From NCBI RefSeq assembly GCF_988243305.1, contig NZ_OZ547136.1: a DNA stretch of 64,000 bases. One strand, given 5' to 3'. The translations under genes were made by a program, and so were the position numbers. Below, piece after piece: positions 16,467-62,523 of this stretch (position 1 is the first letter of the stretch; each line of letters begins with the position of its first letter). The notes below the pieces were generated by a model. It worked only from the letters and a program-made list of their open reading frames with translations. It was not told the origin of the DNA and ran no database searches.

Positions 16467-17231
16467 ATATAACTTATTTCACATAACACGTTGATTTAAT
16501 TAAATAATTTTCACCGCAAAAAGTGCCAAAAATCGCAAAATGACTACACCAGTGACTACACCGTTCGGTGCACTGTATGAAACAACGTGGAACAAATAGA
16601 CACAAGAAATATACAGGCGGATCATCTTTCCAGGGGGAAGCGCACCAATTCATGAGGGGCGTTAATGTCGATATGGGGATCCCCACCTACCGGAATTTTT
16701 TTCCGGTTAAACGTTAATCAGGCTGGTGGGCTTTACCTGTTCGGTAGGTGTTATGATTATCGTAATACCTTTCCCCCAATGGGGTAAAAGCATCAACCGT
16801 AACGAAAGTCGTTATGGTTGCCACTGATACCCCAAATTTGGGTATCACGAGTAAGACCCAAAATCTGGGTGTTACTCTTACTACCCAAACTACGGGTAGT
16901 TTCCGTAGTTTCATGGTCGAGTTGCAGATCTGCAACTCCCCCATTAACCACAGGCGAATTTCCGCCTTCGGTCATTCCTTAATCATCTGCGTAATCATAA
17001 TGATTATTCAGCAAGCGCAATTTTGCACTTTGCTTAAAGTTCAGCGAGTTACCGCGCCGACTTCCTCAAATTGAGGTTTCCGAAAATATCAGCGGGTTAG
17101 CGATTAAGCTGATCATTAATTAAACTGCGAAAATTTCGTAGTTTGTGACTGTCTTTCAGGCAGCTTGTTAACAGTCCTCAGAAGCGAGGGATGTAGCCAC
17201 CCATTTTTGGTCCGTCGGGAATATCAACCAG

Positions 17232-22671: not shown

Positions 22672-22710
22672 AAAACACTAAAGGGGCTTTTAAGCCCCTT
22701 CTGTATGCTG

Positions 22711-23868
22711 TTAATCGTCGTCCTGTGGCAGTTCCAGAATCTTGATCGCGTTCGAATCCACCACGCCACCGCCTAAATATTTCTGCGTGAAAATTTTGAT
22801 GAAGCCCGGCTCTGTGAGGTTGTCCGGTCTGGTGCGAACACCTGTTTCGTGATCAACAATGTAGTAACCGCGTTTGAAGTCACCCAGGGCAATAACGTTA
22901 TCCGGCATAAACTCCAGATATTCGACCGGAAGGCCCAGTAACGTATCAGGATCACCCGCCTGTAAACGGTCGCGCCAGATGTAATCACCGTTCGCGTTCT
23001 TCACCTTCTGAAGTTTTGCCGCCGTCGTGGAGTTAACCACCCAGACCGCGTTTTTGCGGTATTTTTTACGTAATGCAAATTTCAGGTCGATCAGCGGGTC
23101 CGCAGATGTCCACGCCAGAGATTCGGAAGGTTTAATTACCTGCAACGTACCAAAATCACGCTCTTTGTCGTTCTTCTCTGCACGGGGTACGGATAAAAAA
23201 CCTTTTGCTTTTTTGTCACCGTCGCCCACAACCAGATCGCTTTCTTCGGTTTCCGTGAAGGTGTCGCCAATCTCGCCCGTCAGCCATGAAAGGATGTCCA
23301 CATCGGAAAAATCCACGATTTCCTGTGTGGTGCGCGGGTACGCATAGACCGGATACAGCTTAATGCTCACCTCGTTAATCTGCGGGGTGCTGGTCTGTTC
23401 GCGTGTCTTACCCTCTTCACCGTGGTTAACGGTCGCACCGCCAGCGGAAACAAGCTGCTTAAACTCGTTGCTGCTGATTTTCTTCACGGTACAGATGCGG
23501 CGCATGGTGGACTCATCCGCCAGCATTCGCATGATTTCGGTGTTCAGTTCGGGGATAACGGTATAACCACCATCAGCGGGAACGCCTGTACTTAATGCGC
23601 GGGTTTCACCTGTCAGAATGTAGTTGCGTAGTTCTGCGGGGTCAGTGGTCTGGCTGCTTTTACCTGGCTTGCTGCGCTCTTCGTCTGCAATGGCTTCAAG
23701 GCGGGAAATGTCTTTATCGAGGGATTCAGCTTTAGCGCGTAATTCGTCAAATTTTGCGCCCTCAGCATCGTTAAGACTGCGGTTTTCTTTTTCCGCGTTC
23801 TCCAGCATGTCGCGCATCTGATTTTTAATGGCGGTTTTCTGCTGGCGTAATTCGATTATTCTCGGCAT
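22711..23868 (-). CDS. HK97-fold major capsid protein with N-terminal coiled-coil (scaffold-like delta) domain
   Basis: Start taken at the ATG for MPRIIELRQQKT; the track ORF extends to a TTG at 23913; N-terminal charged coiled-coil followed by a capsid-like body. Confidence 0.8.
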   Translation of the reverse strand: MPRIIELRQQKTAIKNQMRDMLENAEKENRSLNDAEGAKFDELRAKAESLDKDISRLEAIADEERSKPGKSSQTTDPAELRNYILTGETRALSTGVPADGGYTVIPELNTEIMRMLADESTMRRICTVKKISSNEFKQLVSAGGATVNHGEEGKTREQTSTPQINEVSIKLYPVYAYPRTTQEIVDFSDVDILSWLTGEIGDTFTETEESDLVVGDGDKKAKGFLSVPRAEKNDKERDFGTLQVIKPSESLAWTSADPLIDLKFALRKKYRKNAVWVVNSTTAAKLQKVKNANGDYIWRDRLQAGDPDTLLGLPVEYLEFMPDNVIALGDFKRGYYIVDHETGVRTRPDNLTEPGFIKIFTQKYLGGGVVDSNAIKILELPQDDD

Positions 23869-23906
23869 AAAAAAAAGTCCTGGGGTTAAGTAAGGAACTC
23901 CAGGAC
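23869..23906 (-). terminator. Stem-loop plus U8 run immediately abutting the capsid gene start codon
   Basis: Minus strand reads GTCCTGGAGTTCCTTACTTAACCCCAGGAC followed by TTTTTTTT then ATG. Confidence 0.5.
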
Positions 23907-24111
23907 GCGGCAAACACTCAACCGTTTTTCATAAGGAAATCAGCAATCGCACCGATCGTTTTCCCGCCTGGTAATGAATATTGGCGAGCACATTAACAGG
24001 CGGGAAAGTGGCCCCAGCGTCCTGGCACCACGGGCGAGAATAATCATGATTCAGTTCGGGTAAAATATGCCGATCCGCTCAGTGAACAACGTGGAACAAC
24101 CACGAACAAAT

Positions 24112-24149
24112 AATTTACAAAAAATAACAAAAAGCCGGATTGCTCCGGC
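24112..24149 (-). terminator. Rho-independent terminator downstream of the small gene 24170..24394
   Basis: Minus strand GCCGGAGCAATCCGGC hairpin followed by TTTTTGTTATTTTTT. Confidence 0.6.
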
Positions 24150-24169
24150 TGTATGTGCTGTATGGGTGC

Positions 24170-24394
24170 TCAGTCTCTGATCCCTTTCAGAAATTCTATC
24201 AATGCATCTGTCTGTTCAGGATTTACTGCCAGCATTTCACCGGATAGCGCGCAACGAACAAAACCATGATGATCCTTTTCAATCAGTGCGCCCGTCTCCA
24301 GGAATGCGCGGTAATCATTGATGCTCATCGTCTCCATGTTGTCAGCATGGTATTTATCACGCTGTTTTAATATCTCATCAAATTTCATCGGCAT
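24170..24394 (-). CDS. Small hypothetical protein (74 aa) in a terminator-bounded cassette
   Basis: ATG at 24394 preceded by AGAGGAAAAAACA RBS; terminators on both sides. Confidence 0.55.
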   Translation of the reverse strand: MPMKFDEILKQRDKYHADNMETMSINDYRAFLETGALIEKDHHGFVRCALSGEMLAVNPEQTDALIEFLKGIRD

Positions 24395-24488: not shown

Positions 24489-24512
24489 CAAAAAAAGCCG
24501 GATTTCTCCGGC
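24489..24512 (-). terminator. Rho-independent terminator ending the replication-region operon
   Basis: Minus strand GCCGGAGAAATCCGGC hairpin followed by TTTTTTT. Confidence 0.6.
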
Positions 24513-24563
24513 TGTGTGATTAGCTGTCCTGGTAATTGCGCCATATTTCATCACCAGCACCAT

Positions 24564-24833
24564 CTATCCCCATTTCGGCATAAGTGCGATCGACTGCCTT
24601 TTCAGGTCTCCGTAATTATCCGGTGGCTCCGGTGGCCTCTGTGCCTTCCTGGAACATTCCAGCCGTCGCATCGTGATGTGATGCCGTTCCTTGTCTGTCT
24701 CCACCAGCAGCATGACTTCACCCCATCGCGCCGACGCCCTCCGGTAAAATCCTTTAGCCTCGAGTTCCTCCGCTATGCGGTCATGTACCATCCTCACCCC
24801 CTCAGAACGGAATACCGTCACCGTAAGGGTCAT
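24564..24833 (-). CDS. Hypothetical protein downstream of ssb; start uncertain (24833 or 24791)
   Basis: ORF in track 24564..24911; candidate ATG starts at 24833 (GGGAGG upstream) and 24791 (GTGAGG upstream). Confidence 0.4.
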   Translation of the reverse strand: MTLTVTVFRSEGVRMVHDRIAEELEAKGFYRRASARWGEVMLLVETDKERHHITMRRLECSRKAQRPPEPPDNYGDLKRQSIALMPKWG

Positions 24834-25212
24834 CGCCTCCCGCTGGTGGCTGATTACCCTGTGTGCCTGTGGTTTTGCGTCTGTTCCCGCCAGGACGTGC
24901 CGCACGGGCACTGATTACGCTGTCTGCAATAACCTGCCAGCCCTGCCGCGTTTCTCCGTTCTGTCCGGTCCACTGGCTTACCTGCATCGTGCCGGATACG
25001 CTGGCAACATCGCCTTTTTGATGTTTAGCCAGGAAGTCGGCCTGTTTGCCAAATGCGATGACCGATAACCATAACGTCGCCTGTCCGTCCTGTGCCTGGC
25101 TGCATGGCAAAGATACCGCCATACGCGCCAGCGTCATCGGTGTGCCCTTGCTGGTCTGTTTTACCTGCGGGTCGTCCACCAGCCGCCCGTAAGCGGCTAT
25201 CTGTGCCGTCAT
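24802..25212 (-). CDS. ssb: Single-stranded DNA-binding protein
   Basis: 136-aa ORF with Gly/Gln-rich linker and C-terminal acidic tail ending DDPYGDGIPF, the hallmark SSB C-terminus. Confidence 0.8.
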   Translation of the reverse strand: MTAQIAAYGRLVDDPQVKQTSKGTPMTLARMAVSLPCSQAQDGQATLWLSVIAFGKQADFLAKHQKGDVASVSGTMQVSQWTGQNGETRQGWQVIADSVISARAARPGGNRRKTTGTQGNQPPAGGDDPYGDGIPF

Positions 25213-27597: not shown

Positions 27598-28034
27598 TTA
27601 ATCCCCGTCCGTCGTTTTTCTTAAAATAACCTCTGTCACGAAATCAGCATAATCGGCGGCGATATTCAGTACATCAAGCCCCGTTGATTTATATTCTCTC
27701 GTGGAAAGTAAGAAAAAAGCCGCTCTAATAAGTTCTGGCATTGACGAAAGCGCATCAGCCGCATCATCAGGAACGCCGGAAAATTCCTGTTTCAGGGAAT
27801 TAAAACGATCATCACGCATAACCCCCCCCCATTTTCACAATCAGCAACAAGAATATTTTTAGCGTCATTCAGCGACCGCGTTGCGATGTATCGGATACAT
27901 TCCAGGGCGAACTGTGTCCGGTCTTTCTGTTCTTCTCCCTGCGCAAGCTCTGCAGTGCATTCAATATCGATAAGCGCGTGCATCAGCGTAGTGAGCGCGG
28001 CGGCTGCTGCGTCCGGTGTGGTTTTATTGCACAT
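27598..28034 (-). pseudogene. Gene split into two frames by a G9 homopolymer tract (27822-27830); frameshifted or phase-variable
   Basis: Upstream part starts at ATG 28034 with AGGAGG RBS and ends 27792; downstream part 27598..27819 begins 3 nt after the tract in the +1 frame. Confidence 0.55.
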
Positions 28035-28314
28035 GGCACACCTCCTGACGAATACGGGCGGCGAATACAGCAACACAACCGGACGGGCAACGGCTACGCG
28101 CTTCGCGTTCCGTCCAGGCGGTTACGTGGATGATTTGAGATTCTCCGGCACTTAGTGCCAGAAAACGCCACACAAAGGCCGTTTGTGTGTGTATAAGGCG
28201 TGGTATATGATTTACGGCAACCATAACGGCTCCTAGTTTACGTTGTTGGTTAGACGCCCCGTATGTGTTCCCAGCACTGCGGGGCGTTGATTTTTGTGTA
28301 ATGGCAAGTACAAT

Positions 28315-28358
28315 GGTAATTACCATGTAGGTATAGTAATGAAGGGTAATTACCATGT
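28315..28358. promoter_or_regulatory. Two copies of 14-bp repeat GGTAATTACCATGT, each containing the perfect palindrome GGTAATTACC; putative operator
   Basis: Copies at 28315-28328 and 28345-28358, 30 bp apart; second copy overlaps the ATG of the small plus-strand gene; region lies between divergent gene sets. Confidence 0.55.
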
Positions 28359-28528
28359 CAACACCATTAGAAAAACGTTCGCCTCCATACCAAATGCGAT
28401 TACCGGAAGACTTCAGAGCGCAGCTAGAAGAAGCAGCTAAGGCCGATGGCGACACATCTTTAGCCACTTGGATTAAACGCGTTCTCCGCAAAGAATTACA
28501 GCAACGCGGCATAGAGCCAAAAGGTTGA
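28355..28528 (+). CDS. Small putative DNA-binding protein (Arc/MetJ-type ribbon-helix-helix-like), 57 aa
   Basis: ATG 28355 to TGA 28526-28528: MSTPLEKRSPPYQMRLPEDFRAQLEEAAKADGDTSLATWIKRVLRKELQQRGIEPKG; one of only two plus-strand genes in the island. Confidence 0.5.
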   Translation: MSTPLEKRSPPYQMRLPEDFRAQLEEAAKADGDTSLATWIKRVLRKELQQRGIEPKG

Positions 28529-28549
28529 ATTTCAGAAGGAGATAAAATA

Positions 28550-28702
28550 ATGAACTGGCTGTTACATACCCTCCCAGGTCGCATTCTCATTGCACTAATT
28601 ATTTTATGGATTTTGTACCAATTCGGTTTTTTCGATTCGCTTTGGAAGCCTGACTGTTCCGTTAACCCTGGCGATGTACTGAAAGGCTGTAAAAATGGCT
28701 GA
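28550..28702 (+). CDS. Small hydrophobic peptide (50 aa), predicted membrane-associated
   Basis: AGGAG RBS 8 nt upstream of ATG 28550; MNWLLHTLPGRILIALIILWILYQFGFF... single hydrophobic segment. Confidence 0.45.
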   Translation: MNWLLHTLPGRILIALIILWILYQFGFFDSLWKPDCSVNPGDVLKGCKNG

Positions 28703-29057
28703 TCAGGGTTACTCCCTGTAATGCCTTTAACTGGCCCTCTTAAAGAGGGTTGGTTATCTTCGCAGCTCTCTACGTTTTTCGTCGGAACCTCTGAACCTAA
28801 GCAGTGTTGATGTTCAGGAGAACCCGAATACTGTTCGTGTTCGTTGCTCGCCAATTCTCGCGTTTCGCGATAATCAAAATGATTCAATGGGTTGAGATGT
28901 CCGTACGTTAAACGTACGCGGTTAATTTGTACATGCGAATTTCGTCGGCTCAAATTCTGCGCAACCCTGCTTGAGTTATGCAAATAGCACGCGGCTAACT
29001 CACAAGGATTTGAGCGCCCCCAAACGGGGGAGCGCAAAATTTTAGGCATAAGACGCA

Positions 29058-29771
29058 TCAGCGAATCTCCAACACTGACGATGAAGTGATCAGGCTGGCG
29101 AACGCATCCATACGGCGGGCAACCTCACGCACCGCATCGCCTGGACTCATGTCATTACGCACCGCCTCATTAAAGGCCGCCTGTTCGATTTTCTGCATCA
29201 CTACCAACAGCCCCAATTGCTGTTCGTCTGCGGTACCGCGTTCACCATCAGACAAACCAGCCACGCGGTTTTCAGCGCGGGCCAGATTGATGTAATGGTG
29301 CCGTTGTGCGCCCAGAGCTTTTAATCTGTCGCGGCTTTCGTGATAGCCAGGCAGGTACTCACGGCGGATAGGTTCTGCGGCGCGGCGCTTAGTGAATGCC
29401 TTCGTAACATCCAGTTTGAACTGGTTAATACGCTCAGGATCACGCCCTCGGGTGATACGCAGCAGATAGTCGAGCTGCGGCTCATTCAGCAGATAACTAA
29501 TCTCAGGACGCCCACGCTTTCGGCCGGATTTTCCCGATTTCAAATCGGTTAATTCCTTGAGTGACTGACGAGGCAGTGATCCCAGCTCGCGCAATCTGCT
29601 CTGGTGCGATTTAATCGTCGCGCTTAAGCTTTCATGTTGTATTCCGGCTCGCTCTGAAATAACGCGGGAATCGATACGCGGCTCCGATTTGTGATTAATT
29701 AAAATATCGCTCTGGCTGGCTTCAGGGCGAACGAATCCCCGCCCACGTTCTGGCGTATATTCAATCTTCAT
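29058..29771 (-). CDS. Hypothetical protein, possible phage-type regulatory protein
   Basis: 237-aa ORF between AlpA and the divergent control region; basic central segment GRKRGRP; no confident family assignment. Confidence 0.4.
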   Translation of the reverse strand: MKIEYTPERGRGFVRPEASQSDILINHKSEPRIDSRVISERAGIQHESLSATIKSHQSRLRELGSLPRQSLKELTDLKSGKSGRKRGRPEISYLLNEPQLDYLLRITRGRDPERINQFKLDVTKAFTKRRAAEPIRREYLPGYHESRDRLKALGAQRHHYINLARAENRVAGLSDGERGTADEQQLGLLVVMQKIEQAAFNEAVRNDMSPGDAVREVARRMDAFASLITSSSVLEIR

Positions 29772-30017: not shown

Positions 30018-30381
30018 TATTGCCCCCTTTCGTTTCTTAAAGAGTCATCAGGTGTCTTATTGTGTCGTATTGTTCCCGCTAGAGTGATAAATGGCAAATA
30101 CTGAGGATGTATGATTTACAGAAAATGAAACAGTAAGAATAAAATCTTTTAAATTCATGTTAATACAAAGGCATAAAATATTGTTTCATGCCTTTTTTCT
30201 CGCTCTTTAAAGAGTGATTCGCTAGTGTATAAAAAACCAGTAACGCATTAAAAATCAGCTACTTATAAATCCGTACGCTTTTTCGCCTCTTGTTCGTAGT
30301 TGTTCCACATTGTTGCTCATTGTTGCACGTTGTATCTGTTCGCATATACAGTATGCGCATACTGAAAAAACACGAAAAAAA

Positions 30382-31611: not shown

Positions 31612-31786
31612 GTTTTACCCCCTCTTTACGAAAAAGTGACTACACCAGTGACTACACCGATCGTTGCACAAAGGGCTACAACGTGAAACAAGCTGGAACA
31701 AGGAAAATCACAAATCTGTTGATAATCAAAAACATAATGCACAGCCTGAAACATTATGAAACAGCAAAAAACACTAAATGATAAAA

Positions 31787-62251: not shown

Positions 62252-62523
62252 GCTCTGCACTTGTGGAGCGACATGCTGCCCGTCCGGGTGCATGTTTTCA
62301 CTTGTCGGATATTAAACCAGGAATTTATTATCTTGTTCGATGTTGTTGGTGATTGTCAGGGATAGTAAAGCGCGTTACTCTTTTCAGAGCAGTTTTTCAT
62401 CCCTGAATATTTGCCATCAGCGCATTCTTATTATTGTAATAACACAAGCGTTCACTTTTGGTGAAATTTTATCATCACTAATAATACCTACCCCTTTGGT
62501 ATTAATTATTTTATGGACCTTTT

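Follow-up and report, generated by a model that had tools for sequence, protein, structure and literature searches.

We describe here the control region in front of the major capsid gene of a 15-kb genomic island, which lies within a 64,000-nucleotide (nt) stretch of DNA (NCBI RefSeq assembly GCF_988243305.1, contig NZ_OZ547136.1) that we refer to as the window. Inserted in tqsA, the island extends from ~16.6 to 31.8 kb and has every gene on the minus strand; these include int, alpA, accessory genes, and genes for a RepA-type helicase, SSB, a PerC-family protein and a 74-amino acid (aa) protein, together with a packaging side that consists of capsid, protease, portal, head closure protein, connector, HNH, terS and terL. 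The island has int, alpA and a replication gene, a head-packaging set and its own attachment (att) sites within ~15 kb, and lacks tail and lysis genes, as do phage-inducible chromosomal islands of the capsid-forming kind (cf-PICIs), which make capsids of their own and move between species on borrowed tails. The same gene set in the same order is present in the cf-PICI prototype EcCIEDL933 (Alqurainy et al., bioRxiv 10.1101/2022.09.08.507074), and from the open reading frames (ORFs) and the RefSeq annotation of near-identical islands we assign the island as an EcCIEDL933-like cf-PICI in E. coli. Immediately before its capsid gene is a stem-loop followed by a run of eight U residues that ends at the start codon, and it is this hairpin-U8 element, and the leader that it closes, with which we are concerned.

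The stem-loop, H3 (GTCCTGGAGTTCCTTACTTAACCCCAGGAC), is followed on the minus strand by T8 and then by the ATG at 23868-23866, which is also the capsid start given by RefSeq in near-identical islands. An earlier sequence-only reading had described the 30-nt stem-loop, the U8 tract, and the capsid ATG flush against it with no Shine-Dalgarno (SD) sequence between the two; our own reading agrees in each respect, and adds an SD-like AGGA within the 3' arm of H3. A possible alternative start had been raised at 23913, an in-frame TTG, but this can be set aside: relatives align from residue 1, the M1 encoded by the ATG, so the TTG is not the start, and the extension would moreover cross the hairpin. 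As folded by RNAfold, H3 has seven GC-rich base pairs (bp), a 1x1 mismatch, three further bp and an 8-nt loop, with an energy of about -12.7 to -14 kcal/mol. The minimum free energy fold of the full leader (-74.4 kcal/mol), taken between the mapped start and the U tract, includes H3 with pair probabilities of 0.99-1.0, and in folding of the nascent RNA the 5' arm of H3 stays unpaired until the 3' arm has been transcribed. A stable GC-rich stem with U7-8 directly 3' of it in all variants is the anatomy of an intrinsic terminator; a simple terminator scan did not pick up H3 and its U8 because of the internal mismatch in the stem. Taken alone, the 61-nt hairpin stretch stands out only modestly (z = -1.9, with equally good folds in 10 of 200 shuffles) and could be the product of chance, and the case that it is real rests on its conservation.

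Capsid relatives were gathered from genomes and from IMG/VR, and their upstream regions extracted. Within the clade whose capsids start MPRIIEL, the hairpin, a run of T7-8 and the abutting ATG are kept in 11 of 11 distinct variants, including one (L090) with a capsid that is 69% identical and in which the loop and upper stem differ. H3 is conserved mostly by identity; its 5' arm is invariant among the 11 variants and all changes are confined to the 3' arm or the loop, some of them improving the pairing, as where CC to TT turns a G-C pair into G-U and an A·C mismatch into A-U. Across the 296-nt leader region the EDL933 copy and the window share 98.3% identity, and the 296-nt leader was matched in 426 of 5,426 complete E. 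coli genomes (in 359 of them with at least 80% length coverage) and in none of 50,697 phage records. Only two type-III leaders were found in IMG/VR, and the leader sequences are absent from the searchable literature.

H3 lies within a transcription unit and on its transcribed strand. Cappable-seq of EDL933 lists a single gene-specific start for the capsid gene (EDL933_RS08700), at 1687918, in seven of eight culture conditions, and no further capsid start appears in that list (PMC10469882 Table S5). This start (TSS_A), transferred to the window, lies 206 nt from the ATG and is upstream of the hairpin, as the earlier reading had supposed, and none is possible between the hairpin and the ATG. TSS_A is the A in CACTGACAGG[A]TCGG, a register that was checked by sequence, and is 10 nt past the third of three TTGTTC repeats, which thus occupy -35, -25 and -15. 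These repeats account for the ACAACGTG motif noted previously at 24086-24099, which is real and is their plus-strand view. According to the same table, the main alpA start is 8 nt after the AACAAT -10 hexamer of a TTGCCA-17-AACAAT promoter that we had already predicted from the sequence, an agreement that lends support to the data set. Other clades have different repeats in the same place and with the same spacing (TTACCC, CATGTTT, ATTC), and the distance from the TGTAAAT box upstream of them to the ATG is 203-259 nt in long-leader clades and ~116 nt in short-leader clades.

A second candidate promoter, the sigma70-like P_B, has a predicted start at ~24030, at the base of H1 (the first hairpin of the leader) and 44 nt downstream of TSS_A. 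In 92 of the 99 distinct leaders a TTTnnn-16-TATnnT site that ends 5 nt ahead of H1 has a score of 7-9 of 12, and it ranks first in 68 of the 99; a start from P_B was not detected in the uninduced EDL933 Cappable-seq list, and P_B may be an induced promoter, the repeats then being at -79 to -54. H3 is downstream of both candidate starts. Our first promoter guess, the TTGTTC at 24089 combined with TATTTT, receives no support from the EDL933 start. Farther upstream, terminators at 24513-24496 and 24150-24133 bracket the small upstream gene, and homology with other islands breaks at 24155-24122, just after the second of these, so the leader is passed on together with the capsid gene.

The leader is a conserved structured RNA. 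Long-leader clades have in common the order TGTAAAT box, two to three direct repeats at 10-bp spacing, and hairpins H1, H2 and H3, of which H1 has a GACG-type loop, H2 is long, and H3 stops 5-8 nt before the ATG. Both H1 and H2 covary: 99.1% of H1 cells are paired, with four pairs changed on both sides and a covariation of 0.479 vs 0.211 when shuffled (reached in 0 of 500), and relatives have 33 distinct H2 basal stems, 26 of them 10-13 bp long, where shuffling gives a mean of 6. For the 226-nt region the fold energy is -83 kcal/mol vs -57.7 for shuffles (z = -5.7). In other clades H3 takes the form GGUUUC...GAAACC, and CGUCCUG and CUUAAC motifs are in common with H3 of the window. A search of the window against Rfam 15 gave no match at gathering thresholds, and at permissive thresholds the leader gave chance-level matches only.

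Positions of features in the window that bear on control of the capsid gene; strand is relative to the window as deposited.
Feature	Position	Strand	Remark
Major capsid gene, HK97 type, 385 aa, first of packaging operon	22711..23868	-	
U8 tract	23869..23876	-	T7 in 7/11 and T8 in 4/11 distinct variants
Terminal leader hairpin H3, 30 nt (the stem-loop first noted)	23877..23906	-	Pair probability ~1 in full leader
SD-like AGGA in 3' arm of H3, 9 nt before ATG	23878..23881	-	
GCGUCCUGG: 5' arm of H3 + 2 nt	23900..23908	-	Perfect complement of CCAGGACGC in H1 (24025-24017)
H2 hairpin (UUUCCCGCCUG ... CAGGCGGGAAA)	23960..24007	-	
H1 hairpin (GUGGUGCCAG-GACG-CUGGGGCCAC), conserved GACG-type loop	24008..24031	-	
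5' strand of H0 (UGAUUAUUCUCG), complements capsid codons 2-5 (23864-23853)	24035..24046	-	Possible long-range helix
P_B, sigma70-like candidate: -35 TTTACC (24064-24059), 16-nt spacer, -10 TATTCT (24042-24037)	24037..24064	-	
TSS_A, 206 nt before ATG	24074	-	Transferred from EDL933 (NZ_CP008957.1 position 1687918; ATG at 1688124)
Three TTGTTC repeats, exact 10-bp spacing	24109-24104, 24099-24094, 24089-24084	-	Candidate island-regulator site
TGTAAAT box in A/T-rich stretch	24113..24119	-	Upstream of capsid gene in nearly all clades
Intrinsic terminator of upstream cassette (AGCCGGAGCAATCCGGCT + T run), near-twin of 24496-24513	24133..24150	-	Terminator scan
alpA, 62 aa, excisionase-type helix-turn-helix	29829..30017	-	Candidate repeat binder
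Second 10-bp-phased TTGTTS array, int/alpA intergenic, inverted; TTGTTCGTAGTTGTTCCACATTGTTG close to capsid-promoter repeats	30290..30335	+	

Beyond its resemblance to a terminator, H3 sequesters the AGGA, whose duplex to the anti-SD is in any event weak (-4.0 kcal/mol). Opening the region from -18 to +12 costs 14.8 kcal/mol here vs 6.2 in sister clades. The SD is weak or absent in all members of the family (-4.0 to +1.6 kcal/mol). The 5' strand of a possible long-range helix with capsid codons 2-5, H0, lies between TSS_A and H1; it comprises 12 bp vs a shuffle maximum of 9, is present in the full-length fold, carries one mismatch in EDL933 and one in L090, and is possible solely in transcripts from the upstream start, TSS_A.

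The 5' arm of H3 also has another potential partner, and CCAGGACGC:GCGUCCUGG is a perfect 9-mer that is mutually exclusive with H3. Counterparts are present in other clades (AGACGUG:CACGUCU and GGCGGG:CCCGUC), and pair 15-39 of the alternative helix is U:A, C:G or G:C across three clades. This pairing has 80.8% of cells paired and four double-change pairs, with a covariation of 0.313 vs 0.142 when shuffled (0 of 500) and of at most 0.208 in slid controls. As neither H1 nor H3 can form alongside it, this pairing would abolish the terminator and leave the SD accessible, and CCAGGACGC/GCGUCCUGG is a possible antiterminator or anti-sequestor pairing.

AlpA is the master activator of Gram-negative PICIs; alpA is switched on by the helper phage, and AlpA activates its own promoter (PMC6092414, PMC11773190). 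Its excisionase-type helix-turn-helix makes AlpA a natural candidate for the protein that binds the repeats. Within the window, TTGTTS arrays with 10-bp phasing are found at the capsid promoter and in the int-alpA gap only, a pair 10 bp apart at 62333/62343, far outside the island, looking like chance. Copies of the repeat motif also adjoin doubled GGTGTAGTCAC motifs at both island ends. As the repeats at the capsid promoter match those in the array next to alpA and the copies near the att ends, AlpA likely binds the TTGTTC repeats.

Several features of the island touch on these regulatory sequences. The array in the int-alpA gap contains four to five TTGTT(C/G) repeats with exact 10-bp spacing that point toward the 3' end of int, and may be bound by AlpA or may start antisense transcription into int. 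The alpA promoter region is at 30044-30119 on the minus strand (EDL933 1681879-1681896); reverse-complementing its -10 gives the core of the repeats, ATTGTT, and 16 nt upstream of its -35 there is a TGTAAAT box. At both island ends (16535-16596 and 31625-31701, minus strand) there is the same arrangement of a TTGTTYCACGTTGT motif, ~20 nt, and then the doubled GGTGTAGTCAC. A doubled arm-type motif has been described for PICI attP sites (PMC10111431), which the island-end arrangement resembles, and this suggests paired sites for the arm domain of the integrase and for a directionality factor. An antiterminator of Pseudomonas aeruginosa that is also called AlpA contacts DNA with residues up to 142, has an eight-helix fold, and forms an N-terminal ring that enters the RNA exit channel (PMC9371919); compared by size and fold, it is far larger and of another architecture, and we rejected it as a model for the PICI AlpA, the shared name probably being a coincidence.

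Other genes of the island were considered as regulators. The 74-aa protein encoded at 24173-24394 (minus strand), a member of phrog_1957, is present in 64 of 81 related loci, and no other gene accompanies the capsid promoter so regularly. Its confident AlphaFold model (predicted local distance difference test 93) has three helices, three short strands and one long helix, with no match in Pfam, among PDB sequences or by Foldseek, and the protein is a candidate trans-acting factor for the leader. The twin terminators that flank its gene have the form AGCCGGAG[A/C]AATCCGGCT plus a T run, as if the gene were part of a terminator-bounded inserted cassette; a 'frameshifted trigger factor' pseudogene that RefSeq places over the 24496-24513 terminator in related islands looks like an annotation artefact. 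The PerC-family gene (24564-24836, minus strand) has PHROG relatives that carry a transcriptional activator label, and is unlikely to be a dedicated capsid regulator as it is in only 9 of 81 related loci. The two accessory genes that follow alpA (28024-29771, minus strand) code for a 237-aa protein and for a 344-aa protein that has a repressor-like domain at its C terminus, and differ from those at this place in EDL933 and DETEC-S792; neither has a PADLOC defence-system match, though cf-PICI variable regions are expected to carry immune systems.

Further observations concern the leader and the operon. In L053, L088, L002 and L003 a hairpin and T run come straight after the repeats, ~35 nt past the TGTAAAT box and just upstream of the conserved sigma70-like site; other clades have the same 17-18-nt spacer without the hairpin, which is possibly an insulator or an early terminator. 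The notion of one terminator per leader in every clade is ruled out, many clades having none. We also rejected a leader peptide, as the 35-codon ORF at 24047, on a reading of the sequence, is without an SD and has not been kept in L090, and a mini-ORF that is present in some type-I leaders is missing from others. Within the operon, a 9-bp terminator-like hairpin (GAAGGGGCTTAAAAGCCCCTT; 22680-22701, minus strand) occupies the 39-nt gap from the capsid stop to the protease start, where it may terminate part of the transcription or stabilise the mRNA, and so fix how much capsid is made relative to the other head proteins.

Tentatively, and at what we judge to be somewhat below an even chance, we favour the interpretation that the hairpin-U8 is a leader attenuator that additionally blocks the ribosome-binding site, with relief coming from the AlpA-driven programme of the island itself. 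H3 ends a structured leader RNA of ~160-206 nt in the cf-PICI capsid operon and, acting as an intrinsic terminator, would halt most transcripts from the capsid promoter just ahead of the ATG. In those transcripts that read through, H3 would bury the sole SD-like sequence and, together with the helix to codons 2-5, would shut translation start, such that the default output of the head operon would be low. Relief would be island-autonomous, following induction of AlpA with no helper function, with the TTGTTC repeats as the regulator site and AlpA as the likely binder. It would most likely join a strong rise in initiation to either partial read-through or the pairing of CCAGGACGC with GCGUCCUGG; this pairing of H1 with the 5' arm of H3 would dissolve terminator and SD trap together. 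The features in the sequence, their conservation, the structure of the leader and an upstream start in a near-identical island are established; the identity of the repeat binder and the mechanism of relief we infer. The sequence-only reading had instead invoked an antiterminator or activator supplied by a helper phage, for which we find no support: capsids of these satellites are published to form without helper phage, so a helper-encoded antiterminator is not required, and PHROG scans found no Q-like or N-like antiterminator family among 14 island ORFs.

A number of observations weigh against attenuation relieved by AlpA. The covariation count inside H3 is not significant (88.9% of cells paired and one double change, as reached by 46 of 500 shuffles), and termination in vivo is a step that we infer. 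The U tract after H3 is present only in this clade and absent in sister clades, and the L125, L126, L094 and L096 types have leaders without any terminator; termination is therefore not needed by the family as a whole. Since the start-codon hairpin is common to sister clades that lack the U tract, the hairpin is ancestral and the terminator signature a clade-specific addition. The terminator state is more stable by 14.5 kcal/mol than the alternative pairing; the latter has an ensemble probability of zero and would thus need some factor, and its covariation comes from three to four lineages only. No canonical or otherwise recognisable -10 element was found before TSS_A, and the EDL933 start data were obtained from a different strain grown in bulk without induction, where some of the cells may have been induced spontaneously. 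With regard to the regulator, AlpA type tracks repeat type only loosely across islands, with L111 and L114-117 as exceptions, and the type-D islands have no matching repeats near alpA.

The chief alternative is that the element is a translation module, in which the hairpin positions or masks the start, the U8 serves as a landing pad for ribosomal protein S1 in place of a strong SD, and termination is minor. We regard this as doubtful, though a serious contender, as there is a start-adjacent hairpin in all long-leader clades, with a CUUAAC loop motif and a weak SD-like GGA(A) in the 3' arm and with the U tract here only; the weak or absent SDs throughout the family, which imply that the capsid must be translated by another route, point the same way, and a satellite with this leader is published to work experimentally. 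However, what defines an intrinsic terminator is a stable GC-rich stem with a perfect U8 directly behind it, here with a predicted fold probability of ~1, and the greater stability of H3 than of the sister-clade hairpins, with its high cost of opening, would be odd for an enhancer.

A broader proposal, which we think unlikely, is that H1-H2-H3 constitutes an undescribed cis-regulatory RNA family that acts as a conformational switch, with pairing of H1 to the 5' arm of H3 competing against H3 itself. The U tract of this clade would have turned a translational gate into a combined gate, the off state would release a stable RNA of 160-206 nt, and the selector would be an AlpA-induced island factor, possibly the phrog_1957 protein.

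Distinctly unlikely is processive antitermination of the Q type, in which an island protein (AlpA or another) bound at the repeats would load onto a paused RNA polymerase that then ignores terminators. The position of the repeats relative to TSS_A resembles that of Q-binding elements and of the P. aeruginosa AlpA-binding element (PMC6606751, PMC9371919), there is a -10-like TATTTT at +8 to +13 (24067-24062), and a terminator lies ahead of the late genes with a second terminator-like hairpin after the capsid gene (22701-22680). Yet the 14 island ORFs that were scanned include no Q-like or N-like family, and the PICI AlpA is a 62-aa helix-turn-helix protein unlike the larger AlpA of P. aeruginosa. 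Moreover, the -10-like element reads TATTTAC or TGTTTAC in other clades rather than TAnnnT, with key positions lost, and in the L096 group and the L125 and L126 types the same repeat promoter drives leaders without a terminator; antitermination therefore cannot be the conserved logic of the repeat promoter, and a dedicated system like that of Q is made less likely.

An improbable possibility, although one compatible with the attenuation that we favour, is that the region is foremost a source of a small RNA: the promoter would be on when uninduced, the hairpin-U8 would free a stable trans-acting RNA of ~200 nt, much as PR' of Stx phages gives the short RNA StxS (PMC7547250), and capsid read-through would be the induced state. 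The start is indeed listed in seven of eight uninduced conditions in EDL933, the leader is highly structured with a terminator hairpin that would stabilise its 3' end, and the conserved H1 loop suggests recognition by a partner, but most clades lack the terminator and would release no such RNA, and no target or Hfq-type motif was identified. We consider it very improbable that the hairpin is a back-up terminator or insulator against transcription from the upstream replication and accessory genes: although the island genes are co-oriented and the two terminators around the small upstream gene show that control of read-through matters, H3 lies downstream of both the mapped start and the sigma70-like site and would stop capsid transcripts too, and it is inherited with the capsid gene and not with the upstream cassette. 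That the hairpin is the second terminator of the upstream cassette, as had been offered earlier, we reject: two terminators already flank that cassette, the mapped start is between them and the hairpin, and the leader goes with the capsid gene.

Parts of this arrangement have counterparts in well-studied systems. The suggested likeness to lambda pR'/tR' stands as regards a promoter, a ~200-nt leader, a terminator-like hairpin and the head genes that follow, and is not supported as regards a helper factor. As in the lambdoid pR'/tR'/Q systems, including PR'/StxS of the Stx phages, where PR' is described as making the short RNA StxS (PMC7547250), a start is seen without induction, followed by a ~200-nt leader and an intrinsic terminator before structural genes, and direct repeats lie within the promoter region, as in the Q-binding element of phage 21 (PMC6606751). 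Unlike in lambdoid late control, no Q-like protein was found among 14 ORFs of the island, the terminator runs right up to the start codon and conceals the SD, a terminator is missing from sister elements, and the satellite needs no helper functions. Leader attenuators and riboswitch platforms provide a second comparison, in that the 5' arm of the terminator can pair with the upstream H1 and both helices have compensatory changes; they differ in that the island leader has no conserved leader peptide and its alternative fold is much less stable. A hairpin-U8 in the leader of E. coli rnd (RNase D) was reportedly found by Zhang and Deutscher (PNAS, 1992) to be required for translation, and the translation module considered above would resemble it; it is likewise a terminator-like hairpin and U8 directly before a start codon without a good SD, whereas the island start codon is ATG and the element closes a long conserved leader. 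Lambda CII acts at TTGC-N6-TTGC sites, in activator-dependent promoters with direct repeats at helical spacing. The capsid promoter similarly has short repeats 10 bp apart around a weak core promoter, and the repeat sequence is swapped between related elements; it differs in having three repeats, at -35 to -15 from the mapped start or -79 to -54 from the sigma70-like site. EcCIEDL933 itself is of the same island type, with the same gene order and leader.

In the cf-PICI literature that we searched, the words promoter and terminator are absent, and the promoter, leader and hairpin are undescribed; nor do searchable reports describe how the timing and extent of cf-PICI capsid production are set. 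The element reported here lies inside an undescribed leader RNA family. Its description locates the control region of the packaging operon, consisting of a repeat promoter whose motif recurs next to alpA and at the att ends, a three-hairpin leader with no Rfam counterpart and, in islands of the E. coli O157 type, a putative terminator fused to the start codon, and defines the exact nucleotides for mutation. It also provides a natural example of a start-site hairpin that turned into a putative terminator by gaining a U tract.

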